Shown here: piece by piece, positions 1 to 64,000 of the stretch
Layout of the letters: the number at the start of each line of letters is the position of its first letter
Position numbering within the stretch: the stretch's first letter is position 1
From: a virus
Virus record (IMG/VR): IMGVR_UViG_3300045988_149268
Span: 1 to 64,000 of that record
Length of the DNA stretch: 64,000 bases
Strand: one strand, 5' to 3'
Program-made: the position numbers and the translations under genes
Notes under the pieces: model-generated
Told to the model about the DNA's origin: nothing
Database searches by the model: none
Seen by the model: the letters and a program-made list of their open reading frames with translations, nothing else

Positions 1-37
1 ATTTTTTATTTGGGTTCGAATCCTACCGCTTCCGCCA
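1..37 (+). tRNA. 3-prime fragment of a tRNA (T-arm with TTCGAAT loop, acceptor 3-prime strand, CCA); body lies left of window, anticodon unknown
   Basis: ggttcgaatcc T-loop/stem followed by acceptor strand and CCA directly abutting the next tRNA; tandem tRNA array. Confidence 0.55.
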
Positions 38-38
38 T

Positions 39-114
39 GCTTTGATAGCTCAATCGGTAGAGCAGTGGTTTCGTAAACCACAGGTTGTGAGTTCAAATCT
101 CACTCGAAGCTCCA
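39..114 (+). tRNA. tRNA-Thr (anticodon CGU), CCA encoded
   Basis: Cloverleaf: acceptor GCTTTGA/TCGAAGC, D-arm GCTC..GAGC, anticodon stem GTGGT/ACCAC with loop TTCGTAA (anticodon CGT), T-arm GTGAG TTCAAAT CTCAC, terminal CCA. Confidence 0.75.
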
Positions 115-119
115 ATTAA

Positions 120-146
120 AGCGATGCAAAAGCATCGCTTATTTTA
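120..146 (+). terminator. Rho-independent terminator after tRNA array
   Basis: Perfect 8-bp stem AGCGATGC/GCATCGCT with AAAA loop followed by T-run. Confidence 0.7.
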
Positions 147-225
147 TTGCCGATTGGTCGCGCCGGTGGTGAGCGTAAGTGCCGAAAACCCAAATAAAAA
201 ATGGTTTTAGTATTTTTTGGAGCAA

Positions 226-254
226 TTGACAGAGTTCGAAAATTTTGATATAAT
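226..254 (+). promoter_or_regulatory. Consensus sigma-A/sigma-70 promoter (TTGACA-N17-TATAAT)
   Basis: TTGACA at 226-231, 17-nt spacer with TG, TATAAT at 249-254; followed by GGAGG RBS and TTG start at 286. Confidence 0.6.
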
Positions 255-285
255 AAACATATAAGAGATAAGGAGGAAAAGGAGC

Positions 286-1164
286 TTGATTAATTTAAAT
301 TTACCTGATTTTGATCTTGGTTATAATGCTTATCGCACGTTATTTGAATTAACTGCTCAACATCCAGAAATTGTATATGATGATACTAAAATCGCTGCAA
401 TTTTTGGTATGTTTAATGGAGCGATTTGGAATGGTGGCGGCATTGTTCTAGGCGGATCTGTTACAAAACAATATGTTGAAGAGATTGTGCATTTTTATAA
501 CGATATTATGCGAGTGCCGATTCGTTTTACTTGCACTAATTCTTTAATTACTGAAAAGCAATGTTATGATACATATTGCAATATGATTCTTAAAACTGCC
601 CATAATGGCAAAAATGAAGTTTTGACCTCTTCACCAATTTTGGAGCAATATCTGCGCACAGAATATCCACATTATAAATTCTGTAAGAGCATTATTACAA
701 CCGCCAATGAGCCATATGATACAAGTGGTAAATATGATTTGGTAGTTATGAAACGTCGTATGAATAATAATTGGGAATTTTTAGATACTATTCCTATTGA
801 AATGCGAGGCAAAATTGAATTTTTATGTTGTGATCCTTGTCCGGATAATTGCCCACGTATTTATAGCCACTATAGGGATTTTGCAAGAGCACAAGTTGAA
901 TTTGATGTAGGTTCATCTAATGTTAAATGCTCAATGATGGATGTAAAAGGTCAATTTACTGATTATTATACAAAACATTTGGAAACTTATATTTCACGAG
1001 AAATGATTGAAAAAGAATATGCACCTCGTGGTTTTACTCAATTTAAATTAAGTGGAAGAACAAATATTGGAGCAATTATTATGGATATTGCTAATTATTA
1101 CATTAAACCAGAATATAAGGATGATATGATCCAATATTTATATGGCTCCTATATAGGAGGTTAA
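286..1164 (+). CDS. Hypothetical protein (Cys-rich, CCDPCPDNCP motif); TTG start
   Basis: 292-aa ORF with strong RBS aaggaggaaaagg upstream; no TAG codons; no recognisable family. Confidence 0.6.
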   Translation: MINLNLPDFDLGYNAYRTLFELTAQHPEIVYDDTKIAAIFGMFNGAIWNGGGIVLGGSVTKQYVEEIVHFYNDIMRVPIRFTCTNSLITEKQCYDTYCNMILKTAHNGKNEVLTSSPILEQYLRTEYPHYKFCKSIITTANEPYDTSGKYDLVVMKRRMNNNWEFLDTIPIEMRGKIEFLCCDPCPDNCPRIYSHYRDFARAQVEFDVGSSNVKCSMMDVKGQFTDYYTKHLETYISREMIEKEYAPRGFTQFKLSGRTNIGAIIMDIANYYIKPEYKDDMIQYLYGSYIGG

Positions 1165-1165
1165 T

Positions 1166-3379
1166 ATGTTTGATATTGTAATTCCAACTTATAATACCCC
1201 AGAAAATTTGTTATTAGATTGTTTAAATGGCATTTAGCAATAGCAAATTGATCATTCACTAATTAATGTTATTTTAATTAATGATGCTGGTCAAGCAATT
1301 GATATAGATAGTATTAAATCTTTATATGATTTTCAAATATCATATTATATCAACGATACGAATGTCGGCCCAGGTATTTGTCGGCAATTTGGAGTAGAAA
1401 AAGCATCAGATTGGATTGTTTTTTGCGATGCTGATGACATCTTATTAAAAGACGCTTTATCACAATATTTTAATTTTATTCAACAGGATAAAGACATTGA
1501 CATTATTTATCCCGCACAGATTAATTTGTTGGATGAATTTTTAGCGCAATAGATTGTGTCAAATAATTTTCCAGATGGTTTATATGCAGTATGTGTCAAT
1601 AAGCATTTTTTAACACAACATCCTGATATTAAATTTTTGCCGTATTATTATCACGAAGATGGCTTATTTACTATGTAGTGTGCAATTCATAATCCTCGTG
1701 CAGTCGGCGCAAATGGAGAAATTATAGCTCATAGAATTGGCAGATATGAGTCTTTAGCAACTTTTAAAAACACAGCTATTTATGATTTAAGCTTGATGGC
1801 AAGCGCATATGCGATTTATCATCATTTTTTAAATGAGCAAGAACAACTATACCTATATAATGATTAGAGAAATTTTTATATAGAAATATTATTAAGTCGT
1901 TTGACATTTTCTGATGCTCTTGAGAATAAAGATAATCAAACATTTGTAAATCTACTGTCATTTTTTATCACTTGTATTAAAAGAGCTTTACCTTATGAAA
2001 TAGTAGAATATTTTATACAAAATTTTAGTGAAACGATTTTTAATTGTAATATTTATGATTACTATCCATCTAATTTTTTAAATGATTTAACGCAATTCTG
2101 TGAAAATGACAATCAGACAATTTTTAATTATTTATCTCAAATGGGCAAATTGGCGTTTGAGACATATGTTAAATTAAATAATATTGCATTGCCAGAATGT
2201 ACAATCACTATTCCAACTTATAATAACTCTAAACAATAGATTGAAAGAATTTTAAATCATTTTAGTAGATAGAGTGCCGCAAAGTATATTAATATTTTAA
2301 TTATAGATGATGGCTCAACAAATAATGAACTATCTCTTGTTGAATACCCAGAAAATTTGAAGATATAGATAATTAGATCTAAATTTAATAAGGGTGTTGG
2401 ACGAGCCAGACAAATTGGGCTTGATAATGTTCATACCCCATATGTAATGTTTTTTGATATGGACGATGATATTATTTATGACGACATCGTTTGGCATTAT
2501 CTTGCATTTTTCATGGCACACCCTGATTATACCGGTATTCGAGGAAAAGAAATTTGGAGAAATCCAGCGCAAAATGATAAATTACAAGAAGATGTCTCAT
2601 TAAATAGTTTACACGGACTGTGCTGTAAAGTAGACACATTAAGAGAATATGATATTAAATTTAAACCTTGGCAATATGCTGAAGATGGAATGTTTACTTG
2701 CACAATACTTTTATATGGCTTAAAAATAAAATCTTTAGAAAAAGAGACATTTTATTTCAGAGATCGTGGTTATTTAACTGAAAATATTGAAAGCACTGTT
2801 GGTAATTTAAATTTTGCCACAGATTCTTGTTTGATTATAAGAGCGCTTTTGGAAATTATGGATAGTGCAAAAGCGAATCTTGAAATTATAGAAAATTGTA
2901 AAGATTGTCTTATTAATGAAGTTTAGAATTTAAGTAATTCTATGTTTCCATATGGAAAAAATGAAGAACTTGATACGATAAAAACACAATTTTTACGCGA
3001 TCACGTAATAGATCCAAGAATTAAAAATATTTTATCTATTTATTATTTATATGAGGCAGTTCGTGTTATACCCTTTGCCATATTAAAAGCTATAAAACAA
3101 TAGCCTTGGGCTTGGGAAAATTCATCTTTAATAATGGCTATAGATAATTTACTCGCTAATGATGACTGTTATTATATAAAAATGGCATCAGGCACCGAGA
3201 ACAAAATTTATACAATAGATGGATTAGAAAAAGAAACAATAGAATGGTTTCATGACTATTTGGACTATTGTAAAAATTTACAATAGGAATGTAAAGATTT
3301 AATAATAAATCTTCCACCTTAGGCTATAAAACATTAGCCTTGGAACTATAAAACATATCAATGGAAAGGAAGAAACTAA
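1166..3379 (+). CDS. Tandem family-2 glycosyltransferase (two GT2 domains plus C-terminal extension), read through ~13 in-frame TAG codons
   Basis: Frame is open from ATG 1166 to TAA 3377 except for TAG; two copies of the GT2 signature (IPTYN...IND/DDGS...DADD and ITIPTYNN...IIDDGST...FDMDDD); track fragments 1901-2239 and 2447-2926 are in this same frame. Confidence 0.65.
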
Positions 3380-3685
3380 ATGTATAGTGTAAAATTATAT
3401 GACAACGATGGCGTTGTCAGCACAATTAATGCTGATACTATTTATTATAATAACGCCGAAAATGGCGTATATCTTATTATAACTTGTTTGAACAAGGATA
3501 ATATCGGTATTAATTTTAATGATTTTCGGGGTGCTGGTTATACTCTTATTGAAGCAGAAAATGAAGATACCGTTATTCCTTTTAATAATTTCAATTATTG
3601 CTCTTCTGTTTCCTGTATGATGAGCGAAAAAATTGTATGGTCATTACAATTTTCTGAAAATGAAGGAGCTTTAACAGTTGAATAA
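3380..3685 (+). CDS. Hypothetical protein
   Basis: 101-aa ORF, RBS ggaaaggaag upstream, followed by terminator. Confidence 0.5.
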   Translation: MYSVKLYDNDGVVSTINADTIYYNNAENGVYLIITCLNKDNIGINFNDFRGAGYTLIEAENEDTVIPFNNFNYCSSVSCMMSEKIVWSLQFSENEGALTVE

Positions 3686-3690
3686 AATAA

Positions 3691-3717
3691 TAACCACCAA
3701 TGGTGGTTATTATTTTA
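3691..3717 (+). terminator. Rho-independent terminator
   Basis: ATAACCACC-AAT-GGTGGTTAT hairpin followed by T-rich tract. Confidence 0.65.
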
Positions 3718-3732
3718 ATTGGAGGAATTAAA

Positions 3733-4791
3733 ATGTCTACTTTAAAGATAGGGCCTGGAGCAGCATCTTTAGGCAATGGTGACAGAAAGGCCGGAGTGCG
3801 ATGTAATTTTAATGCCAGTGGAACCGCAGTTGGTTATGATACAAATACTTATAATTATTCGTTATTTTCTGTAACAATGAATATTTCTCTTTGTAAATAT
3901 TATTCTGTATACGGATATTTTGACGTATATAATCAAGCGGGCACCTTAATTGGAAGAACTAAATAGTGGAATGTGGCAGAAAATGCTGGTTCTGTTAAAG
4001 CCTCCGGTGCATCAGCTATATCTTGTACTTTTACTTTAATTAATACCAATCTCGCTGCAGCAATGTAGACGAGTAGCTTTTATTTAATTATTCGTAGAAG
4101 TGGCGGAAGTGGCAACTGCTGTAATATTAGATCTGGTTGTACTGGCACGCTTACTATTAATTATACAAGAACTACTAAAAATAGCCCCCCAGTTCATCCT
4201 ACTACAATTTATTATCCGGCCACAAACGGTGTAAAGACATATAATACAAAACCATACTTTTCATCTTTAACTGGCACAGACCCCGATGGGAATAATGTGC
4301 AATTAGGTTATGCAATTTATGATACAACTACAAAAACATGGCCACAAGCGACAAAATGGTTAGATGGATGGCATAGTGGAGGAACAAGAGTATATTGGTC
4401 ACATTAGACTGCGCTAACCACTGGTCATTATTATTAGCTTTATACATATGCAAGAGATACAAGTTATACCGTTGGAACGGGCAGTTCTGGTCTTCGTGGT
4501 TTTTATGTTTTAGATAATGGGCTATCTATTGGCAGTATAATTGATGACGCGACGATAGATACGTTATAGACAAAAATTAATAATGTTCAAGCATATTACG
4601 GACAAACAAAAAAAATTTTTACTGTTTGTGATAATGGCACAAAATTAAACCGTTCACAAATAGTTGAATTAGAAAATGCAATTGAAGGAACCCCATATAT
4701 TGCTACTACTGCCTATACATCTCCTGCGGTAGGAGACAAAGCGATTGCCAGTCAATTATCTTCCATTAACACAATTATTGGAAATGCTTGA
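3733..4791 (+). CDS. Hypothetical Thr/Gly-rich protein (possible surface or structural protein), 5 in-frame TAG
   Basis: ATG 3733 after RBS ggaggaattaaa; frame open to TGA 4789 apart from 5 TAG; track piece 3700-3966 is its N-terminus. Confidence 0.6.
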
Positions 4792-4816
4792 TTTTTATAA
4801 AAATTTTTGTTATAAT
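4788..4816 (+). promoter_or_regulatory. Sigma-A type promoter TTGATT-N17-TATAAT
   Basis: Member of the repeated promoter family; 30 nt upstream of RBS/ATG 4846. Confidence 0.6.
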
Positions 4817-4845
4817 ATTTATAGAAAGTTAAGGAGGAATAAAAT

Positions 4846-5094
4846 ATGGAACAGCGTCATGATAGAGCATTTATTCGTAAAATGGCTAAAAAGAAGGCTC
4901 GTCGTAAGCAGTGGATTGTAAAACATTGTTATGGCTGGGACTATTATGATAATCTCCATCAGTATTCTAAAAATAAAATTCATTGTAGTTGTCCTTTGTG
5001 CCGAGCAAAACGCATGGGCAATCGTATGAGTTATCTGAGTATTGCAGAACAGAAAAAAATTTCTGCTATGGAAGAACAGCTTCTTGACTTTTAA
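4846..5094 (+). CDS. Hypothetical basic protein
   Basis: 82-aa ORF with RBS aaggaggaataaaat. Confidence 0.55.
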   Translation: MEQRHDRAFIRKMAKKKARRKQWIVKHCYGWDYYDNLHQYSKNKIHCSCPLCRAKRMGNRMSYLSIAEQKKISAMEEQLLDF

Positions 5095-5112
5095 AAAATT
5101 TTATGATATAAT
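5084..5112 (+). promoter_or_regulatory. Sigma-A type promoter TTGACT-N17-TATAAT; -35 overlaps the stop of the upstream gene; drives ~200-nt leader and tRNA-Val
   Basis: TTGACT 5084-5089, TATAAT 5107-5112. Confidence 0.55.
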
Positions 5113-5323
5113 AATATTGTAATAAAGAGAGCCTTACAGCAAAATTTAATTGTGTATCAGCACAAATACAAGATTTGATTTAAAAAGTTATAAATGACTG
5201 CAAGATAGTCCCCTGTATATATTGTGTGGCTCTCGCAATAAAAACATAATATATGCAACGGATTTGAGCAGTTATTTCCTCTCTTTTCTTCCCTTCAATT
5301 GGACGCCTTTAATGCGTCCTTAT

Positions 5324-5399
5324 GCGGGATTAGCGCAGTTGGTAGCGCAACTGGCTTACATCCAGTCGGTCGGCAGTTCGAGTCTGTCATTCCGCACCA
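5324..5399 (+). tRNA. tRNA-Val (anticodon UAC), CCA encoded
   Basis: Acceptor GCGGGAT/ATTCCGC, D-arm GCGC..GCGC, anticodon stem ACTGG/CCAGT with loop CTTACAT, T-arm GGCAG TTCGAGT CTGTC, ACCA end. Confidence 0.75.
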
Positions 5400-5401
5400 T
5401 A

Positions 5402-5432
5402 AAGCAGGATTGGTTACAATCCTGCTATTTTA
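5402..5432 (+). terminator. Rho-independent terminator after tRNA-Val
   Basis: AGCAGGATTG-GTTA-CAATCCTGCT hairpin then ATTTTAA. Confidence 0.65.
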
Positions 5433-5450
5433 ATATCGGAGGTACATGAT

Positions 5451-6074
5451 ATGGCCGACAATCTGTTAAATATTAGTATTCCAAAAGCGGTAGAAAATCT
5501 TTAGCTTCCAGATCCAACTCTTTTATTTTATTATTAGAATTTGGAAAAACGAATTTTTTGGTTGGATGAAGAAGTTAGTGATTATACTCTCGATTTAATC
5601 AAATATATTATCAAATGGAACGAAGAAGATGACAATATCGAACCAGAAAAACGTAAACCTATTAAAATTTTCTTTTTCTCTCCTGGTGGTGATCTTGAAG
5701 TTAATAATGCGCTCATTGACACCATTCAACTAAGCACAACTCCCATTTGGGGCATTAATGTTGGAAAATGTTTCAGCGCTGCGGCATATATTTTCTTATC
5801 TTGCCATAAGCGTTTTACAATGCCACGAGCGCAACTTTTACTCCACCAAGGCTCAGGCACTTTTTCTGGAACCTATCAAGAAATATTGCCACAAGTTATG
5901 TCGTATCAGCAACAAATTGATGATTTGGCGACTTTTGTTGCTAGCCGCACGCAATATACAGAAGAAGAAATAGCAGAAAATATCACCAGTGATTGGTATA
6001 TTCCAGTAGAAGAAGGTTTAAAAAAGGGAGTATATCATGAATTAATCATAGATATGATGATATTTTTTAATTGA
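5451..6074 (+). CDS. clpP: ClpP-family serine protease (2 in-frame TAG near N-terminus)
   Basis: S14 signature: FFFSPGGDL, catalytic Ser in GKCFSAAA, His in LLLHQGSG; ATG 5451 with RBS ggaggtacat; track ORF 5541-6074 is the same frame. Confidence 0.7.
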
Positions 6075-8947: not shown

Positions 8948-9748
8948 ATGCCAAAATTTACAAAATGGGAGCAGGCAATGATGTGCTTGCGACCTCAATA
9001 TAAAACAAAAAATTTTACTTATGAAGAAGCAAAATTATATCTGTTGAACACCGGCTTTGGTAATTTTACTAAAACTTCATGGAATGCGGCAATTAAGCAT
9101 AATATTATTAAAATTGATAATAATAATACTGCTTATTTTCTTTCAGAAAAAAATGAAGCAATTGATTCAGATTGGACGACTTCGCATCGTAAATATTTTA
9201 TATGCGAGCAAGATAAAACAAAAAAAGGATATGGAGATTTCTTTACAAAAGATGAGTTAATTTCTATTAACAATATTTATTTTAATTGGAAGTCAACTTG
9301 TGAGACATATCAATATTATGGATTTCGTAGACCAAATTTGCCTGAACCTATTAGCGAAGGTTTACCTAGCGCACTTTTTGGCTGGGCACGAACAAATAAT
9401 ATGCCACTTGAAAACATTGATGGTTCAGCAGATCTTGTCGATACAGTTAATGGGGATGCTATTCAAATTAAAGGTATTTCTGCTTATGATGAAAAAGATT
9501 GCGGTCCCACTTCATTTGGTCCTAATTCTAAATTTGACAGATTAATTGTTTTGTATGTTCGCCTGGACGAAGATAAAGTGTATTTTTATGAATTTCCAGA
9601 TGCTCAAGATTATAAGAAATGGAAAGTTAATGGAAATCAAACTGTTGCAGATCAACAATTTCAAAATAAACGACCAAGATTAAATTTAATTCCAATCTTG
9701 AAGGAGAGAGGGATTCAACCTTTCTTTGTATATAATTTTAATGTTTGA
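8948..9748 (+). CDS. Hypothetical protein; candidate restriction endonuclease partner of adjacent C5-MTase (unproven)
   Basis: ATG 8948 with RBS tgggagtttaag; immediately upstream of a DNA cytosine-5 MTase; no confident nuclease motif. Confidence 0.4.
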   Translation: MPKFTKWEQAMMCLRPQYKTKNFTYEEAKLYLLNTGFGNFTKTSWNAAIKHNIIKIDNNNTAYFLSEKNEAIDSDWTTSHRKYFICEQDKTKKGYGDFFTKDELISINNIYFNWKSTCETYQYYGFRRPNLPEPISEGLPSALFGWARTNNMPLENIDGSADLVDTVNGDAIQIKGISAYDEKDCGPTSFGPNSKFDRLIVLYVRLDEDKVYFYEFPDAQDYKKWKVNGNQTVADQQFQNKRPRLNLIPILKERGIQPFFVYNFNV

Positions 9749-9773
9749 CTTATTATAAAATTTTTGATATAAT
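9745..9773 (+). promoter_or_regulatory. Sigma-A type promoter TTGACT-N17-TATAAT
   Basis: Consensus hexamers, upstream of MTase gene. Confidence 0.55.
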
Positions 9774-43589: not shown

Positions 43590-43590
43590 T

Positions 43591-43619: not shown

Positions 43620-43642
43620 TAATTAGAAATGGAGGAGTTCAT

Positions 43643-45312: not shown

Positions 45313-45355
45313 ATTATATAGAAAAGGAGCTCTTCAAGGAGGTGGAATTAAAGTA

Positions 45356-52818: not shown

Positions 52819-53301
52819 GCTGAAAATCTTTGCTATACGTCAATGAAGAAATTTAAAGATAAATATGGGATTATTCCAAAAGTTTCTGATAAAGAGTATT
52901 TTACAAATAGCATTCACGTTCCAGTTTGGGAAAAAGTTGATATGTTAAAGAAAATTGACATAGAAGCTCAATTAACTGGATATAGCTCCGCTGGATGTAT
53001 TACTTATGTTGAATTGGACGCAGGTATGGAAAATAATTTGGATGCTATGGAAGAAATTGTTATATATGCTATGAATAAAGATATTCCTTACTTTGCCATT
53101 AATGTGCCGAATGATACTTGCCTTGATTGTGGCTATACTGGAGAATTTAACAATCATTGTCCAGAATGTGGCAGTCCGCATATTCAGCAATTAAGACGTG
53201 TAACTGGTTATTTAACTGGTAACTATAAAACTGCTTTTAATAAAGGCAAAATTCAAGAAACAGATATGCGAGTTAAACATACAGGATTAATGGAGGATTA
53301 A
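52819..53301 (+). CDS. nrdD: NrdD exon 2 (glycyl-radical and Zn-ribbon C-terminal domain)
   Basis: CLDCGYTGEF..CPECGS zinc ribbon and glycyl radical motif RRVTGYL. Confidence 0.75.
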   Translation, partial: AENLCYTSMKKFKDKYGIIPKVSDKEYFTNSIHVPVWEKVDMLKKIDIEAQLTGYSSAGCITYVELDAGMENNLDAMEEIVIYAMNKDIPYFAINVPNDTCLDCGYTGEFNNHCPECGSPHIQQLRRVTGYLTGNYKTAFNKGKIQETDMRVKHTGLMED

Positions 53302-54826: not shown

Positions 54827-55428
54827 AAATTGAAGCAGGTTTTGAAAGAATTACAAAATATCAAGAGGATAATGATGTAAAAATCCCTAATCGCAAGACC
54901 GCAGCGTCTGCAGGTTATGATTTTTATGCCGCGGAAGATACTATCGTTCCAGCTTATGATATTATGTTGTCTGATTTTCAAAATAGTCTTATTCAAGAAG
55001 AAATTTCAGACAAGGAACGCTTTAAGACAATTGAAGACGTAGATAAGGCATTTAATCCGATCTCTCTTGCGGATTTTGCCACTTTAACAAAAAAGTATAA
55101 ATTTAAACCAACTCTTGTTCCTACTGGTATTAAATGTAAAATGCCAGAAGATATCTATCTACAGTTAAGTGTGCGCAGCTCTTTGCCACTAAAGGATTGG
55201 CTTGTTTTAGCAAATGGTGTTGGTATTATTGATGCCGATTACTATAACAATCCAGACAATGAAGGACATATTTATTTTCAACTAATCAACTTTTCTCCAT
55301 TTCCGATTTTGATTAAAAAGGGAGATTGCTTTGGATAGGGCATTCTTCTTCCATATAATACTTGTGCTAACGAAGACAAAGTGACAGCAACTCGCGAAGG
55401 TGGCTTTGGTTCTACAAGTGGCAAGTAA
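54823..55428 (+). CDS. dut: dUTP diphosphatase (1 in-frame TAG near C-terminus)
   Basis: dUTPase motifs RKTAASAGYDFYA, RSSL, GVGIIDADY, C-terminal RGGFGSTG-like (TREGGFGSTSGK). Confidence 0.7.
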
Positions 55429-55935
55429 AAGAAAAATTTTAGCCTTAGATCAGAGCACGCGTGTGTCTGGCTGGGCTATTTTTTATGGAGATTAGTTAGA
55501 AAGTTTTGGACATTGGACGCATACCGCAGAAGATATTTCTATACGTATCCATGGTCTTTGTTAGGAAATTCAAGAGAAAATAGAAGCAGAAGATATAGAC
55601 TTCGTAGTGATTGAAAATATTCAGCTGGAAATGAAAAATAAGGATAAACCATTATTAAACGTTGCGACTTTTTAGAAATTAGCTTGGGTTCAAGGTGCAA
55701 TTATGGAACTATGTAATGAAATGAGTATTCCATTCACTCTTGTTTATCCAAATGAATGGCGCAAAGCATGTAATTTTTTAAAGGGGCAAAGTCCAAATCG
55801 TGATGCTTAGAAAAAAATTGCTCAATAGTGGGTGTTAAATACATATAATAAAAAATGCACACAAGATGAATCTGATGCAATTTGTATTGGCTGGGGTTAT
55901 ATACATTTAGAACCAGAAGAAATTGTTTTTGATTA
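55418..55935 (+). CDS. RuvC-like Holliday junction resolvase (5 in-frame TAG; GTG start)
   Basis: N-terminal KILALDQSTRVSGWAIF matches RuvC ILGIDPGSRVTGYAV; acidic catalytic residues later (DESDAICIG). Confidence 0.5.
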
Positions 55936-55999
55936 ATGGGCTGTTCTCAATAATCCTTCTTTCATAGAATTGAAATAATTTGTGAAGGGAGGAATTTTT

Positions 56000-56500
56000 A
56001 TGCCATTTGAACAACAAGTTTTTGATTATTTTCTTAAATGGTTCATTCCTTTTTTATGTGCAGGATTATTTTCTGCAATTTTTATACCTCTACGGAACAA
56101 ACTTAAAAAAGGACAAGAAGTGGCAGATCAAACTGAATGGGACAATCACGCTTAGGCAATTCAATAGCAAATAGATAATTTAAAAAATGAAACACAATTA
56201 TTATCTAAGCGAATTGACTTTTTACAAAAAGATGTAATCGAAAAAATTGATGAAAATACAAAAGGCATACGAACGGCGATGCTGCAATAGCAATTAAGAG
56301 GCTTAATCATTGATGGAAAGTCTTATTTAAGACGTGGTAAGATTACCATTGATCAATTAACTGATTATAATGAACGATATTCTACTTATAAAACACTTGG
56401 CGGTAATGGTCATGCTGATATTTGGGTATCAAAAATTCGTGAATTAAATATTGTACAATCGCTTAATGACAATGAAGAACTTGAAGGCTCAAATGAATAA
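56000..56500 (+). CDS. Membrane + coiled-coil protein (3 in-frame TAG)
   Basis: ATG 56000 after gaagggagga; N-terminal TM FLKWFIPFLCAGLFSAIFI; frame open to TAA 56498. Confidence 0.45.
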
Positions 56501-57487: not shown

Positions 57488-58177
57488 TTAGACTCCGCAT
57501 CCACAATAATTATTCGTCGCCGCATATGGTGAAGAAGTTACATAGGCTGGACGTGGAACAGGCTGTAAAGCACCCAAGATATTTTGCGTTTGTAAGTTGT
57601 TAGACAATGCAGAGCGGGTAGTAGAAAGTTCATCTCTAAGAGTCTGAATTTGATTCTGCATCATAGCGTCTAAAATGCGTTGTGTATTTTCATTCTAAGC
57701 AGTAATAATATCGCAAGTATTTTTTGCATTTTCATAGCGCACTGCATCAATATTGCGGTTAGTGGTGCAGCAGCACTCTTGCTGAGCGAAACGATTTTCA
57801 TTCAGCTGTGTGCCAAGACCATAGAAACCATTGGTCATGGCCGATTGTAGATTAGTAAGATTCTGTAAATTATCATATTTCACAGAACCCCAGTTGTTTG
57901 CCGCATCGCGCTCAAAAGCACGAAGTTCAGAAGCGATTTCGCTCTGATTGCGGAAAACATCTTGCTGGCCGAGTCCTTGATATAATTCGGCTCTTGTCAA
58001 CGCTCCTTCCACAGCGTTGTTGTTGCCACCAAAGAATCCGCCACCGCCCCAGGCGAGTAAGAAGAACAAGAAGAAAACCCAAATCCAGGTTCCTCCTGCT
58101 CCACCAAAACCATTATTATTGCCATTTGTCATTGCCATTGCGTCTGCTAAGCTAAATCCGCCGTTTTCAAGTGCCAT
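57488..58177 (-). CDS. Glycine-rich membrane protein (1 in-frame TAG)
   Basis: GG-rich segments flanking TM WIWVFFLFFLLAW; frame continues through TAG to TAA at 57488. Confidence 0.45.
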
Positions 58178-58209: not shown

Positions 58210-58401
58210 TTATTTATTAAACATGGATTGAAACTGCTTAAATTGTTGAAGCATTTGATTCATGTCTAAACCTTTTTCTTTGCAGATATTTAGTGCTATT
58301 TGTTGTAATTCTTCAGGTGTTTTGCCTTCCGCCATTTGCTGGGCCCTTGCGAATAGTGGATTATTAGAAAATAGGCTTAGTGGGTTGTTGTTGTTTGTCA
58401 T
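58210..58401 (-). CDS. Small hypothetical protein
   Basis: RBS aaggaggaggaactgcaaatg. Confidence 0.5.
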   Translation of the reverse strand: MTNNNNPLSLFSNNPLFARAQQMAEGKTPEELQQIALNICKEKGLDMNQMLQQFKQFQSMFNK

Positions 58402-58489
58402 TTGCAGTTCCTCCTCCTTGTTTAATCTAAGTTAATTGAGCACTAAGGTCATTAATCGCCTAATTAAATTCTTCTTTACTCACAAAATC

Positions 58490-58768
58490 CTAAGTGCTCG
58501 TCGGTTGAGGTGTTGATGGTAAGTCTGTTAATTCATACATTCTAAAAACTGCCTGACCATTTAGCCCGATTTGTTTTGTATAAATTCGATTATTTGAAAC
58601 ATCAGGAAAATAGAATGTCGTACCATCAAAATCAATTGGTATTGCGCGTACCTCATCAAGTGAAGCAACGGGACGACCGCGTAACAAATTTTGCTACGTC
58701 GCCATCTGCGATTCCAAATAATTTAACCGTTGCTATTGTTGAGGATACATTCCGTAATTTGGAATCAT
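58490..58768 (-). CDS. Small hypothetical protein (2 in-frame TAG)
   Basis: Start MIPNYGMYPQQ-Q-.. after RBS aaaggagagacaaat; extends track ORF 58490-58687 upstream through TAGs. Confidence 0.45.
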
Positions 58769-58863: not shown

Positions 58864-59265
58864 TCATTTAGCCGGGGTCTTATTTTCTTTTACTTGAGCC
58901 TCTATTAAATTCATAATATAACTCTGTAAATCACCAGTTGCGTTTGATAAATAATCTTTTGCATCTTCAGATAAAATTGCCATAATAGCGCTATATGTCT
59001 TTTGAAGTGCTTCTTTTTGAGCTTCTTCAGTAAAGGCGTTTTTGTCTTTTAGCGCATCAACATAAGTTTGATTTGTCGCAATAACACAATTTGTAACCGT
59101 CTTATTCAACATATCAAAATACTTCTTAAAAATTTCATTATCTGTCTTTTCTTTAAGTTCTTCATTTTTAACAGCAAAAAATTGAACCATATACTTTGTA
59201 ATAAGCCCCAATAGAGGAATAATTACAACCACAAAAAGATTTTGTAAAATTTCAGTCCAGTCCAT
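58864..59265 (-). CDS. Holin, phiLC3/Phage_holin_1-like
   Basis: 133 aa, single N-terminal TM VVVIIPLLGLITKYMV, long charged C-terminus; immediately upstream (in transcript order downstream) of lysin; RBS aagggagtatgattt. Confidence 0.55.
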   Translation of the reverse strand: MDWTEILQNLFVVVIIPLLGLITKYMVQFFAVKNEELKEKTDNEIFKKYFDMLNKTVTNCVIATNQTYVDALKDKNAFTEEAQKEALQKTYSAIMAILSEDAKDYLSNATGDLQSYIMNLIEAQVKENKTPAK

Positions 59266-59278: not shown

Positions 59279-60232
59279 TTATTTATAAAAAATAAAATAT
59301 TGTTTTGCTTGTGATCTTAGGTTAGATTTTTTTGATTTTGCGCGGGCCGCAGAACTTCCACCTGGGTCACAAATATAAACATAGGTATCGTCAACTTTCC
59401 ACCAACAGATGTAATGACCATGCTTTGTCCATACTCCTGGACCAACAGAACAAACAACATAGGCGCCATTTTTAATAGCCTTCTCCGCTGTTGCATATGA
59501 GCTTGTCTAAACAAAATTTGATGCTTTATATTTTTTAGCAACATATTTAAAGAAGCTCCAAGAAGTGCCATTGTTTTCTGTGCGGAATCCAGCATCAACT
59601 GCTAAAGCACACATTTCAACTGGTGTTATTTTTTTATCCCACCATGTAGCTACAATATCCGCCATTGCAGTTGGGCCACAACCAGAATTACCAATATTTT
59701 GTGTTTTATTATATGTATTATTTTTTGTGAAAACAACTTTTTTCCATTTAGAATCATATTGTTTGTAATTTACTGGCTGTTTAGTATTTGTGCCTCCACT
59801 GCTAACTGAATTAGAGCTATTGCTAGCAGAAGCTGTTCCAGATAAACCAAACAATGCCGCCCACGTTTTTTGTCCTATGATTCCGTCAGCAACAAGATTT
59901 GCGGTTGTCTAAAAGGTTTTGACATGAGCTTTTTCGTCAACTTTAAATATACCATCTTGAGCCATAGTCTATAGTAAACATTCTAAAACATTAACCCATT
60001 TACCAGAGGAACCAACTTTAAGTGTAGGGGCATCTTTTACAATTGCAGCATAAGTATTTTTTCCAACAATACCATCCGCTATTAATTCTTTACTTTTTTG
60101 ATATGCTCGAATAGCTTGCTCAGTATTTTTACCAAAAATACCATCAGCATCAATTTCTAAAATATATTGTAGAGCTTTGACATATTCATTTTTTGAGCCT
60201 TTTTTAAGAGTTACCATGTGGATTATCCTCAC
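59279..60232 (-). CDS. Peptidoglycan hydrolase: 2x PG_binding_1 repeats + Ser-rich linker + C39-like cysteine peptidase (3 in-frame TAG)
   Basis: PG-binding repeats ADGIFGKNTEQAIRAYQ / ADGIVGKNTYAAI / ADGIIGQKTWAAL; C-terminal GNSGCGPTAMADI (Peptidase_C39_2-like Cys) and GHYICWW His; track ORFs 59969-60232 and 59507-59854 are one frame; 59317-59598 is spurious. Confidence 0.6.
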
Positions 60233-60652
60233 TTTCTGTTAAAATAAATTCTTCAGAAGTCCAAAATACTTCTGGCTCTTTTTTAACGAGCAAATTATGA
60301 ATCCAATCCATTATCTTCTTCAACATCGTCATAATCCTCCTATATTTCGCCATTAAGCACTTTTTCTAAAATTAAACGACGAGTTTCAAGTTTAATTTTA
60401 TTTTCAGTTTTTGCTTTATAAGAATAAAAACCTGAAATTACAGATGCTTCAACAAAGACTGATGGAATTAAATACTCTAATGGCGATAAATCATTAGTCA
60501 TAACCATTAAAATAATTGTAAAAATTACAACCAAAATAGTTATAGCCATAATTACAATACACAGTAATTTACTAAAAGAAGTGCCGCGACTGCTATCTGC
60601 GCGCATTGCATCTTGAATATATGGATATGCCAATCGCGGCAAGTCTTCTTCA

Positions 60653-62350
60653 TTATACTGTTGCTGCTCCGAGAGCCTTCCACGTCGCTTTACCAACGAT
60701 ACCATCTACTTTCAAATTTTTATCTTTCTAAAAATTTCTTACAGCTTGTTGGGTCTTAGAACCAAAATTACCATCAATTCCAGTTTTACCAACATCGTAG
60801 CCAAGAGCAACAAGAATGGTCTATAATTCTTTTACATAATCATTAATCATTCTTTTTTTAAGCATTGGATAATTTGTAAAATCTTTTCCTTCCGCTGGTT
60901 TTGTTTCTTCTGGCTTATCTTTTCCTTGCGCCGCAATTAAAGCTGCAAAAGTTTTCTTACCAGCTAAGCCATCTACTTTTAAATCATTATCTTTCTAAAA
61001 AAGTTTTACTGCATTGATGGTTTCATCCTAATAATATCCATCTGTTGGAGCTTTATAATCTAACTCGCACAATAATTCTTGTAGTTCTTTAACATCAGTC
61101 CCAGAATAACCTTTTCTTAAAGTTCGAGATCCAAATTTATATTCTTTCAATGAATCATTAGAATCAGTATCTGGTTTTTGCACAGAACCTGAAACATATT
61201 CTACACCTGGAAACTCATACCAGTCAGTCCAAGGTCTATCTTTCAATTTGGTAATAATAATTCCTTTTGCAAAGCCATAGGCTTCAACAACTTCTCCATT
61301 GCCAATATAATATCCAACATGTCCATCTTTACGAACAGCAAGGCCAGGAATTTCAGGAATTGTATTAATTGGACCGTAATTTTTCTTTTTACTTTTAGCA
61401 TATGTAAACATTCCATTTGCACTTCTGTCAGGACATCCGTTGGAACCATATTTACTAACAATTTTTTTACCAGTTCCAATAGCTTCAATAACACCAACGC
61501 CACCGTTTGTCCAAACAAAACCTTTGCCCAGCCCAACGCAATCAGCACATACACATTTATTCGCTATTGCTTTATTATACTTCGCCATACGGCTTGAAGT
61601 GTAATGGCTTGGATATTGTCTAGATTTAGATTTTAATACAGAAGCTGTGCAATTATATACACAAGTTCCATACCAATATGGCTGTCCAACCATCTACTTT
61701 AAAAAATTAACAAAATCAATATTCGTAAGTCCCATAGTTTTCTTTCCTCCATTAAGAGTCGAGGTGTTCTCACCATAGTTGTTACGGATGTCAGTACCTG
61801 GATAATAAAAATTTAAAATCTCAATATAAGTTTTACCAATAGACGCAGCGTATTTGGCGCCAGCTTGGCTCATACCAACTCCGTGGCCGTTCTTTTTGCC
61901 TTGGGAAGCGGCCCGGTCCCATGGGTCATCGCGCGCAATTAAGTATGGTCTATCCCCTCCCCATACTTCTTTTGATGAATACGTGCGACCGCCATTTGTT
62001 GCAGCATAATTAGCATTTGTGATTAAAGAATTTTTATAAAATAGAACTTGCCCTTCTGTATCAGAAACAGCTTGATGTGCTTTGTCATAAGCGGCAGAAA
62101 AACGTGAAGCTCTAAATGCCTAATCTATACTACTTTTATCTGTAATATAGCCTTGTCTTTTATACTTATTTAAAGCAAAAGTTCTAGCAGCTATTGCTTG
62201 CGCTTTCCCAGCTTCTAAGGGCGCATTACCAATTTCTGATGGAACAACTCCTTTTAAATATTCTTCAATATCAATTTCAATTAGATTTTTATGATAATAA
62301 TTAATATTTTCTGAACGACTTAATTTTACTTTAATTATCATAACAATCAA
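60653..62350 (-). CDS. Multidomain cell-wall hydrolase: SpoIID/LytB-like domain + NlpC/P60 peptidase + 2x PG_binding_1 (4 in-frame TAG)
   Basis: SpoIID-like AQAIAARTFAL..NGGRTYSSKEVWGG..GHGVGMSQAGA; NlpC/P60 Cys ADCVGLGKGFVW and His GHVGYYIG; C-terminal PG_binding_1 repeats where TAG sits at conserved Gln (F-Q-KD..L.VDG); track ORFs 62120-62350 and 61028-61693 share frame; 60340-60705 spurious. Confidence 0.6.
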
Positions 62351-62365
62351 TCCTAAAAAAAATAA

Positions 62366-62387
62366 GCCGCATTTGCGGCTTATTTTT
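62366..62387 (-). terminator. Hairpin ATAAGCCGCA-TT-TGCGGCTTAT between - strand genes (possible attenuator/terminator)
   Basis: Perfect 10-bp inverted repeat followed (on - strand) by T-run. Confidence 0.5.
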
Positions 62388-62712
62388 ATTTTATCTCACT
62401 AAATTCAACTTCAATATTGCGATTAGCATTCTCAGCTCTATCATTAATCTGAGAAACGCTTAATGAAACGGGGATATGATCATAAAGCACATTATCAGAA
62501 TTGCCAATTAAATGAAAATCAATAATTTGAGTTCCATTCTCAACAAGAGAAAGTAAATAAGTAATCGCCAAATTCGCTTTATCTGGACTTAAAGAAACTG
62601 AAATCGTTTTATTGATTTCACCATCTCTTAAATAAGCATAATTAACAGATAAAACCTCAATCTTATTATTCGTGTCCTTGTTTAATATAAGCTGCATAAA
62701 AAGTCTCCTCAC
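62386..62712 (-). CDS. Hypothetical protein (likely start at MQLILNK ~62697)
   Basis: RBS aagtgaggagactttttatg precedes second Met. Confidence 0.45.
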   Translation of the reverse strand: MRRLFMQLILNKDTNNKIEVLSVNYAYLRDGEINKTISVSLSPDKANLAITYLLSLVENGTQIIDFHLIGNSDNVLYDHIPVSLSVSQINDRAENANRNIEVEFSEIK

Positions 62713-63293
62713 TTTTCTTTATAAAAATCAAGAGCTTGTAAGTATGCTTCTGAAAGACGCAATGAAGTTGGTCGAGAATCTTTCCAAGTTTTTACTTCAT
62801 CAAGAATAGATGATGTAGCATTAATTAAGTCAATATAAGATACTCCAACTGTAATCAATCTTATTACTGATCCAAGACCTTGCTGAATGTCAATAATACC
62901 GTGTAAATATTCATCGAATTCAGGACGATTTTCTGGCTCTTGCGTAACCTTATCTTTAATAATATCGCAGAAATTATCACACATACATAGCCAAGCATTT
63001 AAGAAATCTTCCCAAGCCATACAATTAAGATCTCTCAACATATAAGATGGCATAGCATTTGTAATCTCTTTTAATGTATACACAGTGCTAAAATCTGGGT
63101 ATTGGACAGAGCCTAAACCACCATCTCCACAACTCATTGCGGATTCAATCACTTTACTAACTTCGCCCATAGTATTTAAAAGTTGAGGATAATCGTTTAA
63201 TAGGATTACCCCAATTTCATCTCTTGTATCAAGAGATTTAAGAATAATATATCGTGCGTCTCCATAAGACATATTTTTAATCTGCATAATCAT
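62709..63293 (-). CDS. Hypothetical protein
   Basis: Start MIMQIKNMSYGD overlapping upstream gene stop (ATGATTATGCAGATTAA); track ORF over-extended to 63380. Confidence 0.45.
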   Translation of the reverse strand: MIMQIKNMSYGDARYIILKSLDTRDEIGVILLNDYPQLLNTMGEVSKVIESAMSCGDGGLGSVQYPDFSTVYTLKEITNAMPSYMLRDLNCMAWEDFLNAWLCMCDNFCDIIKDKVTQEPENRPEFDEYLHGIIDIQQGLGSVIRLITVGVSYIDLINATSSILDEVKTWKDSRPTSLRLSEAYLQALDFYKEK

Positions 63294-64000
63294 AATTCGC
63301 AAAAACTTCCTTTCTAATGCGTTCAAGTTCAAGGGTTTTATCTTCACCAATCTGTGATAAAATATAGTTATATGCGTCATATTTTAACAAGCATTCAATA
63401 CTCGTTGCAACAACAGCATACATTACGATACAAACAGATGGAATTGGTACAAATAAATTACGAGTCGCTTCGTATTGCGCACCAAGACAAGTACCGACAC
63501 AGCAGTGTCTAATTGCGCAATTAGCGCAGTATGGGAACGCTTCTTTATGTGCAAAATAGGTAGCACTCAATAATTCGGCATTAATGTTTTTAAATTTTAA
63601 AATCTTTTCATCATCTTCTACCAATTGCCCAAAATAGAAATCTTTATAGCCGGTGCGGTGACACGGATATAACATTAAGTCACTAAGTCTAACAGTAAAC
63701 TGGCTTTGAATGCCGCAAGTTAATCCGCGTCCTGTGCTACTAAAAGGTTCAGCCAAAAGATTAAAGCCACCACCCTTTAGGATAAAATCTACCATTTGAT
63801 AGGGATTGTGTTCGCACTTCTCCCAAACAAAAGCATAAAGATGACGAATAAATTTCTGTAATTCCCATACATCTTCTTGTTTCCACTCTTCATTTCTAAC
63901 TTGTAACAAATAAATTGTTTCCCAAGGAATATCATATTCTGCCATTTTTTCTTGGAACCAATCGAAATTTTTAATCCAATTTTTTATATTCTTACTATAA
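63277..64000 (-). CDS. Radical-SAM family protein, SPASM-domain C-terminal portion (partial; N-terminus beyond window)
   Basis: CANCAIRHCCVGTC = CxxCx5Cx3C SPASM motif plus upstream Cys (CHRTGY); reading frame stays open to window edge with no RBS at the 63945 ATG. Confidence 0.4.
   Translation of the reverse strand, partial: YSKNIKNWIKNFDWFQEKMAEYDIPWETIYLLQVRNEEWKQEDVWELQKFIRHLYAFVWEKCEHNPYQMVDFILKGGGFNLLAEPFSSTGRGLTCGIQSQFTVRLSDLMLYPCHRTGYKDFYFGQLVEDDEKILKFKNINAELLSATYFAHKEAFPYCANCAIRHCCVGTCLGAQYEATRNLFVPIPSVCIVMYAVVATSIECLLKYDAYNYILSQIGEDKTLELERIRKEVFANYDYAD

Follow-up and report, generated by a model that had tools for sequence, protein, structure and literature searches.

Gene-selective use of TAG as a glutamine codon in a large gut phage and its possible gating by a suppressor tRNA

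The 64,000-nucleotide stretch of phage DNA analysed here (the window) contains two sharply separated groups of genes, a minority in which TAG is a common glutamine codon and a majority in which selection acts against it. The window is best explained as an approximately 64-kb part of a large phage (approximately 170-200 kb) that infects a Gram-positive gut host, has a replication module of the SPbeta type and applies genetic code 15 (TAG = Gln) gene-selectively; no terminase or capsid gene was found in these 64 kb. Open reading frames of 100 or more codons cover 78% of the window when it is translated with the standard code and 94% when TAG is read as sense. TAG encodes glutamine: relative to genomes 91-95% identical, 15 of 16 TAG substitutions were to CAA or CAG, and the commonest residue partner of TAG in distant orthologues was Q.

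Among 77 curated genes of the window, 82 of 768 Gln-type codons are in-frame TAGs, and their distribution is bimodal. Fourteen rich genes hold 69 of them, at 32% of their 213 Gln-type codons, while the other 63 genes hold 13, at 2.3% of 555. TAG is absent from 50 genes, while 20,000 random reallocations gave 32.4 such genes on average and 44 at most; the heterogeneity chi-square of 179 (simulated, 74 +/- 12.6) was reached in 0 of 20,000 simulations, and the rich/poor split was unmatched in 20,000 permutations. A preliminary description had proposed gene-selective recoding and named uniform TAG density as evidence to the contrary; the observed density is far from uniform. Poor genes contain 13 in-frame TAGs versus 370 out-of-frame, and thus in-frame avoidance is not compositional; PolIII-alpha has TAG at 0 of 45 Gln codons in frame and 28 TAGs out of frame. 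The TAG/CAG ratio in poor genes is 0.07 versus 4.5 for TTG/CTG, an approximately 65-fold depletion of TAG. Codon bias does not explain the split, since among genes of similar A-ending bias (A3 of at least 0.8) TAG accounts for 59/176 in rich and 5/158 in poor genes. Furthermore, 32 TAGs of rich genes were shared with close relatives and 6 were not, versus 3 and 10 for poor genes (Fisher p = 1e-4 overall, 0.03 with L001 alone). These analyses support gene-specific and strongly selected avoidance of TAG.

Every gene listed in the preliminary description as TAG-free has no in-frame TAG (DnaB, primase, RecJ, Dda, PolIII-alpha, ligase, SHMT, spliced gyrB and gyrA, Pnk, RNA ligase, the TROVE-like gene and flotillin). 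All of the classes that it called TAG-rich are rich, including the holin-proximal protein, although small corrections to its counts were needed for GT2 (14), the Zn-ribbon nuclease (6), the holin neighbour (5) and the lysins (3 and 6). The two groups do not divide cleanly into early and late genes: a tail-like gene and several other minus-strand genes are TAG-free, besides the holin. Thirteen genes of the poor group have a single TAG, namely Dcm, NrdD, NrdG, dUTPase, RNase H, AAA_24, YorH-like and DUF5662, membrane proteins at 57488-58177 and 60295-60705, and three unknowns. Because nucleotide-metabolism and other replication-phase genes are among those with single TAGs, suppression must already work when they are expressed. 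The single-TAG genes had been overlooked previously, as had the TAG-free holin and the TAG richness of the intron endonucleases, the membrane (TM) protein at 55982-56500 and ClpP.

Four homing endonucleases are TAG-rich, three of which lie within group-I-like introns of gyrB, gyrA and nrdD (Table 1). In-silico splicing restored the motif IIIMADADVDGSHIR in gyrB, whose intron had no Rfam match, and GRFHPHGDSSIYGAL in gyrA. The nrdD intron is missing in the 91%-identical L001, which has a GIY-YIG gene instead, between nrdD and nrdG. Together, the endonucleases, RuvC and the membrane GIY-YIG nuclease account for 29 of the 82 TAGs. TAG-rich and TAG-free genes are co-transcribed. As noted previously, TAG-rich genes are found on the plus strand behind consensus sigma-A promoters, for example in the GT2 cluster; GT2 overlaps the TAG-free g1, and three endonuclease genes reside inside introns of TAG-free genes. 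Since the two kinds of gene share transcripts, any difference in their expression acts at translation, in agreement with the earlier proposal of translational rather than transcriptional control.

Table 1. Features of the window, with in-frame TAG counts of protein-coding genes
Position	Strand	Feature	TAGs	Remarks
1-37	+	tRNA-Ser(UGA), 3' end		Second-to-last gene of tRNA array running upstream of window; aligns with L002 491-580, L018 6216-6305
39-114	+	tRNA-Thr(CGU)		Terminator-like hairpin 119-140 follows
226-254	+	Perfect (12/12) sigma-A-type promoter, TTGACA-17-TATAAT with TG		Heads operon g1/GT2/3380/3700
286-1164	+	Conserved first gene (g1), function unassigned	0	0/8 Gln codons
1142-3379	+	Tandem GT2 glycosyltransferase	14	34% of Gln codons; overlaps end of TAG-free upstream gene
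3700-4791	+	Beta-sandwich/FN3-like protein (u3700)	5	TAG-rich in all relatives found
5324-5399	+	tRNA-Val(UAC)		Sigma-A-type promoter 5084-5112 upstream
5451-6074	+	ClpP-like protease	2	
16168-17028	+	Free-standing homing endonuclease (Zn-ribbon repeats + nuclease domain)	6	6/10 Gln codons; PHROG 374/559/9084
18412-18852	+	YqeY/GatB-tail-like protein	0	Own promoter 18355-18383
23856-25411	+	gyrB exon 1	0	
25412-26460	+	gyrB group-I-like intron		Exon ends in U, intron ends in G
25589-26299	+	GIY-YIG homing endonuclease in gyrB intron	5	
26461-26860	+	gyrB exon 2	0	
28340-28573	+	gyrA exon 1	0	
28574-29485	+	gyrA group-I-like intron		P1 pairs CACGGU with GCCGUG; ends in G
28802-29425	+	LAGLIDADG endonuclease in gyrA intron	2	
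29486-31627	+	gyrA exon 2	0	0/20 Gln codons
33604-34593	+	Membrane-anchored coiled-coil protein, C-terminal GIY-YIG nuclease domain	8	
38949-49269	+	SPbeta-like replication block (DnaB, primase, RecJ, Dda-like helicase, PolIII-alpha)	0	
50110-51855	+	nrdD exon 1	1	Codon 61 (CAG in L001)
51856-52818	+	nrdD group-I-like intron		
52053-52658	+	HNH_3 endonuclease in nrdD intron	3	
52819-53301	+	nrdD exon 2	0	
55400-55936	+	RuvC-like resolvase	5	
55982-56500	+	Membrane (TM) protein	3	PHROG 4105
58364-58768	-	Holin-adjacent protein u58364, function unassigned	5	
58864-59265	-	Holin	0	0/7 Gln codons; PHROG 13712
59279-60232	-	Endolysin (PG_binding_1 + C39-like peptidase)	3	
60653-62350	-	Endolysin (SpoIID + PG-binding domains)	6	

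The TAG-rich status of RuvC, u3700 and u58364 is conserved at 34-63% amino acid identity, with TAG positions differing. RuvC is rich in all lineages examined, with counts of 6, 4, 5 and 3 TAGs and positions that shift, and u58364 has 3 and 8 TAGs in relatives; the TM protein, like these two vertically inherited and syntenic, is also rich in all lineages, with positions that turn over. The syntenic neighbours dUTPase, NrdG and holin (1 and 0 TAGs in relatives) remain TAG-poor across lineages. GT2 has 15 TAGs in L002 and 12 in L018, both close relatives, and its L004 and L009 homologues lack TAG; as these are only approximately 30% identical, versus 59-71% for the flanking genes, their orthology is doubtful. 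In L015, TAG is used in DnaB, RecJ, PolIII-alpha and NrdD, with 3-4 TAGs each in replication genes.

A suppressor tRNA(CUA) was not seen within the window. It is present in L018, which is 95% identical in nucleotide sequence to positions 11-6036, and lies there in a tRNA array, approximately 3.4 kb upstream of the point corresponding to window position 1. Approximately 130 nt upstream of the L018 suppressor is TTGAAA-17-TATAAT with TG (11/12, near-consensus sigma-A), which by consensus match, rather than expression measurement, belongs to the same class as the promoters preceding TAG-free genes. The suppressor also occurs in L008-L010 and in L011. Its acceptor features are tRNA-Gln-like and its D-arm resembles that of tRNA-Gln(CUG); the array that contains it comprises approximately 15-30 tRNA genes behind a sigma-A-type promoter. 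This arrangement comes close to the immediate-early suppressor expression that the preliminary description had itself considered incompatible with late timing. With no distinct late control visible at the suppressor, any delay would need accumulation kinetics.

The explanation favored here, held to be probable though far from secure, is that translation is gated by the suppressor and that the genes evolve under two regimes. Genes needing unmodified host translation machinery would be kept TAG-free by purifying selection, that is, those for replication, RNA repair, most nucleotide metabolism and host takeover, usually directly behind sigma-A extended -10 promoters. In the minority class, consisting of the four homing endonucleases, the membrane GIY-YIG nuclease, RuvC, both endolysins, the holin neighbour, GT2 and a few unknowns, TAG would be an ordinary Gln codon at approximately one third of Gln sites. 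The host presumably terminates at TAG, and full-length products of these genes would need a phage tRNA-Gln-like suppressor (anticodon CUA) from the array just upstream of the window. They would arise only after this tRNA, probably building up gradually, out-competes RF1. The chief beneficiaries would be DNA-cutting and wall-cutting enzymes, harmful if active too early, and the delay may be adaptive rather than merely tolerated. The late-timing switch of the preliminary description, a published hypothesis of Borges et al., is only partly supported by the sequence data: gene-specific avoidance and co-transcription favor it, while the suppressor promoter, the TAG-free holin and minus-strand genes, the single-TAG replication-phase genes, the TAG-free GT2 homologues and the TAG-using replication genes of L015 do not. 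The YqeY/GatB-tail-like protein, as a possible tRNA-Gln accessory factor, is only a lead.

An alternative that is less likely, yet deserves serious consideration, is that suppressor production begins as soon as infection does and that TAG has no timing role, being merely a Gln codon of slightly reduced efficiency, purged where fast, accurate and high-level translation is strongly selected and drifting to compositional equilibrium in weakly constrained or selfish genes. In rich genes the TAG/CAG ratio (4.9) is near the unconstrained level given by TTG/CTG (6.7); being at, not above, neutral expectation, it does not demonstrate selection for TAG. The TAG fraction also tracks A-ending codon bias (rho 0.43; Mann-Whitney p = 3e-4), early genes swap single TAGs with CAA/CAG, and the sigma-A-type promoter ahead of the suppressor, the TAGs of L015 replication genes and the TAG-free GT2 homologues of L004 and L009 are in line with such tolerance. 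However, depletion is near-absolute (3/214 in replication genes), even at equal codon bias. The rich genes also fall into coherent functional classes, such as endonucleases and lysins, instead of being a random sample of low-expression genes, and weak expression is not typical of endolysins. The status of RuvC, u3700 and u58364 across deep divergence also argues against simple tolerance.

Ancestry rather than regulation could produce the pattern if TAG-rich genes, such as the mobile endonucleases and GT2, came from more fully recoded phages and TAG-free genes from standard-code phages or bacteria. The mobility of endonuclease genes, exemplified by the nrdD intron, the low identity of GT2 relative to its flanks, and three foreign-looking TAG-free genes (10844-12340, 21447-22901 and 36005-37314; CAG only, higher GC) agree with this idea. 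It is nevertheless improbable, because RuvC, the TM protein and u58364 are vertically inherited and TAG-rich in all lineages beside TAG-poor syntenic neighbours, the composition of most TAG-free replication genes is phage-typical (GC 0.30-0.35), and the transient TAGs of poor genes indicate ongoing selection, not history alone. That TAG-interrupted frames are decaying pseudogenes or were mis-called has nothing in its favor beyond stop codons under the standard code. This reading was rejected as extremely unlikely: only TAG, never TAA or TGA, interrupts the frames, matches to Pfam or PHROG domains extend in full across the TAGs, TAG exchanges with CAA/CAG, and public gene calls for relatives are intact proteins that read through TAGs.

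The pattern is real and of a kind already described for recoded gut phages. Alternatively coded clades include Lak, crAss-like, Jade, Sapphire, Agate, Garnet, Amethyst and Topaz phages, in which 26-71% of genes per clade are recoded and a translational block on late/lytic genes was proposed (Borges et al., bioRxiv 10.1101/2021.08.26.457843; Nat Microbiol 2022). The present phage shares with them TAG read as Gln, a phage-encoded suppressor tRNA (here seen in relatives) and partial recoding (35% of window genes), as well as recoded lysis genes and, with several clades, standard-code replication genes. The sample of L004, JS_HF2_S141, is also the source of the Jade representative. In contrast to those phages, the holin is TAG-free here, and no release factor/aminoacyl-tRNA synthetase "code-change module" was seen within the window; in Jade the suppressor adjoins the lysis cassette rather than lying in a tRNA array. 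In TGA-recoded Agate phages, a recoded group I intron endonuclease resides in an early gene, and its stops were proposed to delay the endonuclease (Borges et al., section 8, 10.1101/2021.08.26.457843). In both systems an early gene in standard code has an intron whose endonuclease gene contains many of the recoded stop codons, but the codon is TAG (Gln) here and TGA (Trp) there, and the present phage has three such introns, three endonuclease families and a free-standing endonuclease. The homing endonuclease I-TevI of phage T4, borne by an intron of an early gene, is likewise transcribed yet untranslated early; RNA structure that sequesters its ribosome-binding site, together with a late promoter, restricts it to late infection. 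Codon meaning, through which control would operate here, is not known to play a part in that restriction.

Phage phAss-1 (proposed Phassvirus; OQ749652) is a TAG-recoded gut phage with a 136 kb genome, 28% of ORFs recoded, and 36 tRNAs including CUA suppressors, without a dedicated synthetase (PMC10607447). Annotated phage records yielded no better match to PolIII-alpha, yet at 39% identity it represents a different group. The SPbeta-like Bacillus phages SPBc2 and phi3T have the same replication module (YorF, YorH, DnaB, primase, RecJ-like, helicase and YorL PolIII-alpha). In GenBank, these phages are annotated with the standard code. Their PolIII-alpha is 38% identical, and kinship with them is limited to the replication module.

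Taking TAG as sense raises the share of the window covered by open reading frames of 100 codons or more from 78%, the standard-code value, to 94%, and the 76 complete genes obtained in this way end in TAA (51 genes) or TGA (25 genes). Matches to Pfam and PHROG domains run across in-frame TAGs, and the explanation that the TAG-interrupted frames are pseudogenes was rejected. A nucleotide search of the phage collection, an exact DnaB look-up, a viral-contig scan with PolIII-alpha and one with the 3' end of the truncated tRNA did not recover the genome to which the window belongs. Close relatives of the window include the contigs L001 (~91% identical to 35.3-58.6 kb), L018 (95.2% identical to 11-6036), L002, L016 and L017; the closest contigs come from the samples SRR25936442, SRR17704072, ERZ27271063 and ERZ28616156. 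Codon-by-codon comparison with the 91-95%-identical relatives revealed that 15 of 16 TAG substitutions were to CAA or CAG, the other being to TAT, and in distant orthologues Q was the most frequent partner of TAG. As judged from these alignments, TAG is read as glutamine. A tRNA-like gene with an ochre-type anticodon (UUA; 44 bits, 27% GC), which adjoins a TAG-rich HNH gene in L018, hinted at read-through of TAA as well, but this is unsupported in the window, where same-frame neighbours are not enriched after TAA (12:8:7).

The gene list was built with TAG as sense and annotated with Pfam and PHROGs, which yielded 77 curated genes in a window of 34% GC. The plus strand begins with an unknown conserved gene, followed by a tandem GT2 glycosyltransferase, ClpP, PhoH, PARG/macro, methyltransferases and a TROVE/vWA-like gene. 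An RNA-repair set (RlaP, phosphoesterases, RNA ligase, Pnk) is next, then SHMT, YqeY, flotillin, gyrB, gyrA, RNase H and ligase, an SPbeta-like replication block (YorF, AAA_24, YorH, DnaB, primase, RecJ, SF1 helicase, PolIII-alpha) and, lastly, guanylate kinase, NrdD/NrdG, dUTPase, a RuvC-like resolvase and a membrane protein. The 64-kb window contains neither a terminase nor a capsid gene. The two features that suggest a Firmicutes host are the sigma-A extended -10 promoters and distant homologues labelled Lachnospiraceae.

Coordinates of the features discussed (window positions unless a relative is named)
Feature	Position	Strand	Remarks
Early-type region	1-56.5 kb	+	
Minus-strand block	56.5-64 kb	-	tail-like gene, holin, two endolysins, several unknowns
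tRNA-Ser(UGA), 3' end	1-37
tRNA-Thr(CGU)	39-114
Promoter upstream of GT2	226-254	+	perfect
Unknown gene u3700	3700-4791	+	TAG-rich
tRNA-Val(UAC)	5324-5399
Bsp6I-like restriction endonuclease	8948-9748		weak match
Promoter of this pair	9745-9773
Dcm-type C5 methyltransferase	9797-10765
Segment absent from L002/L016/L017	8937-10749
TROVE/vWA-like gene	10844-12340		almost CAG-only
Free-standing homing endonuclease	16168-17028		PHROG 'HNH/homing/intron-encoded endonuclease' families
yqeY promoter	18355-18383		sigma-A-type
YqeY	18412-18852		TAG-free
Promoter of PHROG 1257 gene	20012-20040
PHROG 1257 gene	20065-20361		TAG-free
Flotillin	21447-22901		almost CAG-only
gyrB insertion	25412-26460		P1 pairing ACGU/GCGU
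GIY-YIG endonuclease	25589-26299		within gyrB insertion
gyrA insertion	28574-29485		P1 pairing CACGGU/GCCGUG
LAGLIDADG endonuclease	28802-29425		within gyrA insertion
wHTH plus YorF	36005-37314		almost CAG-only
nrdD insertion	51856-52818		P1 pairing ACGCCU/GGGCGU
Extended -10 element and Shine-Dalgarno	52000-52052		upstream of HNH_3 gene
HNH_3 endonuclease	52053-52658		within nrdD insertion
Holin neighbour u58364	58364-58768	-	TAG-rich
tRNA(CUA), L018	2845-2933
tRNA-like gene (UUA), L018	3456-3529
tRNA(CUA), L008	3823-3913
Major-vault-protein-like gene, L008	15792-18263		CAG only

The 77 genes contain 82 in-frame TAGs among 768 glutamine-type codons (TAG, CAA and CAG). When these were reallocated at random in 20,000 trials, the number of genes without TAG averaged 32.4 and never exceeded 44, as against 50 observed, and the heterogeneity statistic of 179 (simulated, 74 +/- 12.6) was reached by none of the simulations. 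Fourteen TAG-rich genes hold 69 TAGs, which make up 32% of their glutamine-type codons; the other 63, TAG-poor genes hold 13 (2.3%), and 27 of the 77 genes (35%) carry an in-frame stop. Avoidance is restricted to the reading frame, the poor genes containing 370 TAGs out of frame; 28 of these are in PolIII-alpha, none of whose 45 glutamine-type codons is TAG. TAG occupies 24/61 such codons in homing-type endonucleases, 14/41 in GT2, 5/13 in RuvC and 9/39 in lysis genes, 3/214 in replication genes and 0/35 in RNA repair genes. Besides the endonucleases and RuvC, the rich genes are the two lysins, the holin neighbour, GT2, u3700, a membrane protein, ClpP and a ThyX-like gene. Within the rich genes there is no 5' bias of TAGs (quartile counts of 19, 15, 13 and 22). 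TAG is enriched in lysis and late genes and avoided in early ones, the exceptions being the TAG-free holin (PHROG 13712) and single TAGs in nucleotide-metabolism genes. The claim of the preliminary description that recoding is selective by gene was borne out by the concentration of TAGs in 14 genes, and its lists of TAG-free and TAG-rich genes agree in essence with the 77-gene table; they had missed that the holin is TAG-free, that three further rich genes are intron endonucleases and that 13 otherwise poor genes have one TAG each, including Dcm (where it falls within the domain match), NrdD, NrdG, dUTPase, RNase H and AAA_24.

Four of the rich genes encode homing endonucleases, one of them free-standing and three within insertions in gyrB, gyrA and nrdD. 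With the membrane-anchored GIY-YIG protein (8 TAGs) and RuvC (5 TAGs) added, endonucleases account for 29 of the 82 TAGs. All three interrupted genes regain their reading frame upon in-silico removal of the intron, and splicing of gyrB and gyrA restores the conserved motifs IIIMADADVDGSHIR and GRFHPHGDSSIYGAL and leaves both genes TAG-free. In L001 (91% identical) nrdD is uninterrupted and the intron is absent; a GIY-YIG gene is found there instead, between nrdD and nrdG. The 5' exons all end in U, able to pair with G in a P1 helix of 4-6 bp, and the last base of each intron is G. Because Rfam recognises no intron core, they are termed group-I-like: searches for group I/II introns gave no match at gathering thresholds and at E <= 1, and no covariance model recognised the catalytic core (P3-P9) of any of the three, although ORF insertions of 0.6-0.7 kb may defeat such models. 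Just upstream of the HNH gene of the nrdD intron are an extended -10 element of its own (TGTTATAAT) and a Shine-Dalgarno sequence, and transcription of this gene may not depend on nrdD alone.

TTG/CTG, the corresponding synonymous T/C choice among leucine codons, served as a comparator for TAG/CAG. In the rich genes the TAG/CAG ratio of 4.9 is near the TTG/CTG ratio of 6.7, whereas in the poor genes 0.07 stands against 4.5, a deficit of ~65-fold; TAG therefore behaves as an unconstrained codon in the rich set and is purged elsewhere. Its use in the rich genes is near-neutral, and the ratios do not demonstrate selection for TAG. The density of CAA plus CAG is equal in both sets (~34.5 per 1000 codons), with ~16 TAG per 1000 on top in the rich genes; this extra glutamine was set aside as a sign of selection for TAG, as GT2 has 41 glutamines in total and the TAG-free GT2 of L004 has 40. 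At other codon pairs the rich genes are more A-ending (Mann-Whitney p = 3e-4), but this bias fails to explain the pattern because genes matched for it still have TAG counts of 59/176 in the rich set and 5/158 in the poor set. Furthermore, TAGs persist between close relatives in rich genes (32 shared, 6 not) and much less so in poor genes (3 shared, 10 not; Fisher p = 1e-4 overall, 0.03 with L001 only).

Homologues of PolIII-alpha number in the thousands, many on contigs of 170-205 kb, more than 100 of which are related to the window, and conservation was compared in loci of four more distant lineages. For four genes TAG status is kept across lineages while TAG positions differ, the counts in the window and then in relatives being 5, 6, 4, 5 and 3 for RuvC, 5, 8, 5 and 6 for u3700, 5, 3 and 8 for the holin neighbour, and 0, 1 and 0 for the holin. 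The replication genes proper of two loci, L012 and L013, are TAG-free, and TAG occurs only once in each of the two replication blocks, namely in the YorH-like gene of L012 and in the PolIII-alpha ORF, as called, of L013. Because DnaB, RecJ, PolIII-alpha and NrdD of a further locus, L015, have 3-4 TAGs each, and the L004 and L009 homologues of GT2 lack TAG, the partition depends on lineage for some genes, although the orthology of these GT2 homologues, which are only ~30% identical to the window GT2, is doubtful. For u3700 there was no match in Pfam or PHROGs; its AlphaFold model (pLDDT 75.6) has beta-sandwich/FN3-like domains and C-terminal helices, and matches only generic beta-sandwich/FN3 folds and, weakly, phage minor-tail/structural proteins (TM <0.3).

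About 25 strong sigma-A-type promoters, with a 17-nt spacer and mostly an extended -10 TG, were found on the plus strand, mostly in intergenic positions 12-35 nt (occasionally as far as ~90 nt) 5' of TAG-free genes; the minus-strand block has no promoter of comparable strength. Because the TAG-free first gene, which follows a perfect promoter, overlaps GT2 at its end, and the intron endonuclease genes lie within TAG-free genes, any difference in expression must be translational, as had been proposed. TAG-free and TAG-rich genes on the same transcripts are under two selection regimes, ~65-fold depletion and near-neutral use.

The window begins at the end of a tRNA array, as its first bases are the end of tRNA-Ser(UGA), and the only tRNAs found in it by ARAGORN and Rfam are tRNA-Thr(CGU) and tRNA-Val(UAC), with no CUA tRNA. 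In L018 the array includes a CUA tRNA (53.9 bits) ~3.4 kb upstream of window position 1 and ~130 nt downstream of TTGAAA-17-TATAAT with TG, and a homologous CUA tRNA is present among the 27-30 tRNAs of the array in the more distant L008-L011. This tRNA has a D-arm like that of tRNA-Gln(CUG), an A1.C72 mismatch, G2-C71, G3-C70 and G73; its variable region contains an insertion of 16-18 nt, which two divergent versions of the tRNA retain. It is 89-91 nt long and is labelled 'Pyl' by ARAGORN. The preliminary description had assumed translation that waits for a suppressor to accumulate and would have been contradicted by an immediate-early promoter; the promoter found is of the same class as those of TAG-free genes and comes near to that, although a consensus match is no measure of expression. 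A host-type suppressor promoter speaks against the simple view that late genes are switched on by a late suppressor, and shifts the question of timing to tRNA accumulation and competition with RF1. YqeY, encoded in the window as a free-standing protein with its own promoter, is a homologue of GatB's tRNA-binding tail and could assist Gln-tRNA formation on the suppressor; no literature linking phage YqeY to recoding was found.

Most likely, full translation of the TAG-rich genes has to wait for an active phage suppressor, and selection keeps TAG out of the genes that are needed earlier. The earlier reading of TAG as a late switch is supported in part and is not new, and the sequence is compatible alike with an adaptive timer and with mere tolerance. 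It is conceivable, if rather improbable, that recoding is mainly a means of containing or licensing DNA- and wall-cleaving enzymes, rather than a late-gene switch. The enzymes concerned would be the homing endonucleases of the three introns, the free-standing endonuclease, the membrane GIY-YIG nuclease, RuvC and the lysins. Host RNA polymerase would transcribe the suppressor early, and the delay would depend on how the unusual tRNA-Gln-like suppressor, with its A1.C72 mismatch and variable-arm insertion of 16-18 nt, accumulates and is charged, perhaps with the aid of the YqeY/GatB-tail-like protein. The switch would in that case come no later than DNA replication, and not at lysis.

Gut phages were found to be partially recoded, with early genes in standard code and lysis genes preferentially recoded, and recoding was proposed to keep late and lytic genes from being translated too early; for Agate phages, the same explanation was given for a recoded group I intron endonuclease that lies within an early gene (Borges et al., bioRxiv 10.1101/2021.08.26.457843). 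In those phages 26-71% of genes have an in-frame stop, a range that includes the 35% of the window. The Jade representative of that study shares a sample name with a relative of the window and has a similar genome size, which are only circumstantial pointers to membership of a clade of that study (such as Jade or Sapphire). In the TAG-recoded phage phAss-1 (PMC10607447), which provides the best annotated PolIII-alpha match (39% identity), 28% of ORFs are recoded. The present findings leave the published framework unchanged, the pattern being of a kind already known, and offer a clear, quantitative case of mixed genetic coding in a Firmicutes-type phage whose replication genes are SPbeta-like. 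The new details are the TAG-free holin, the near-neutral TAG use in the rich set, the suppressor behind a host-type promoter and the recoding of several families of endonuclease within a single genome, where one recoded intron endonuclease had been published before.

Several further observations concern individual genes. The Bsp6I-like restriction endonuclease and Dcm-type methyltransferase genes, which lie behind a promoter, are an insertion relative to close relatives. A small protein matching PHROG 1257 ('ribosome associated inhibitor A; zinc finger domain') has its own promoter. Finally, the TAG-free TROVE/vWA-like, flotillin, and wHTH plus YorF genes use almost exclusively CAG for glutamine and are richer in GC (0.38-0.44); major-vault-protein-like genes of relatives use CAG only. 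Such codon use hints at another origin or at another regime of expression.
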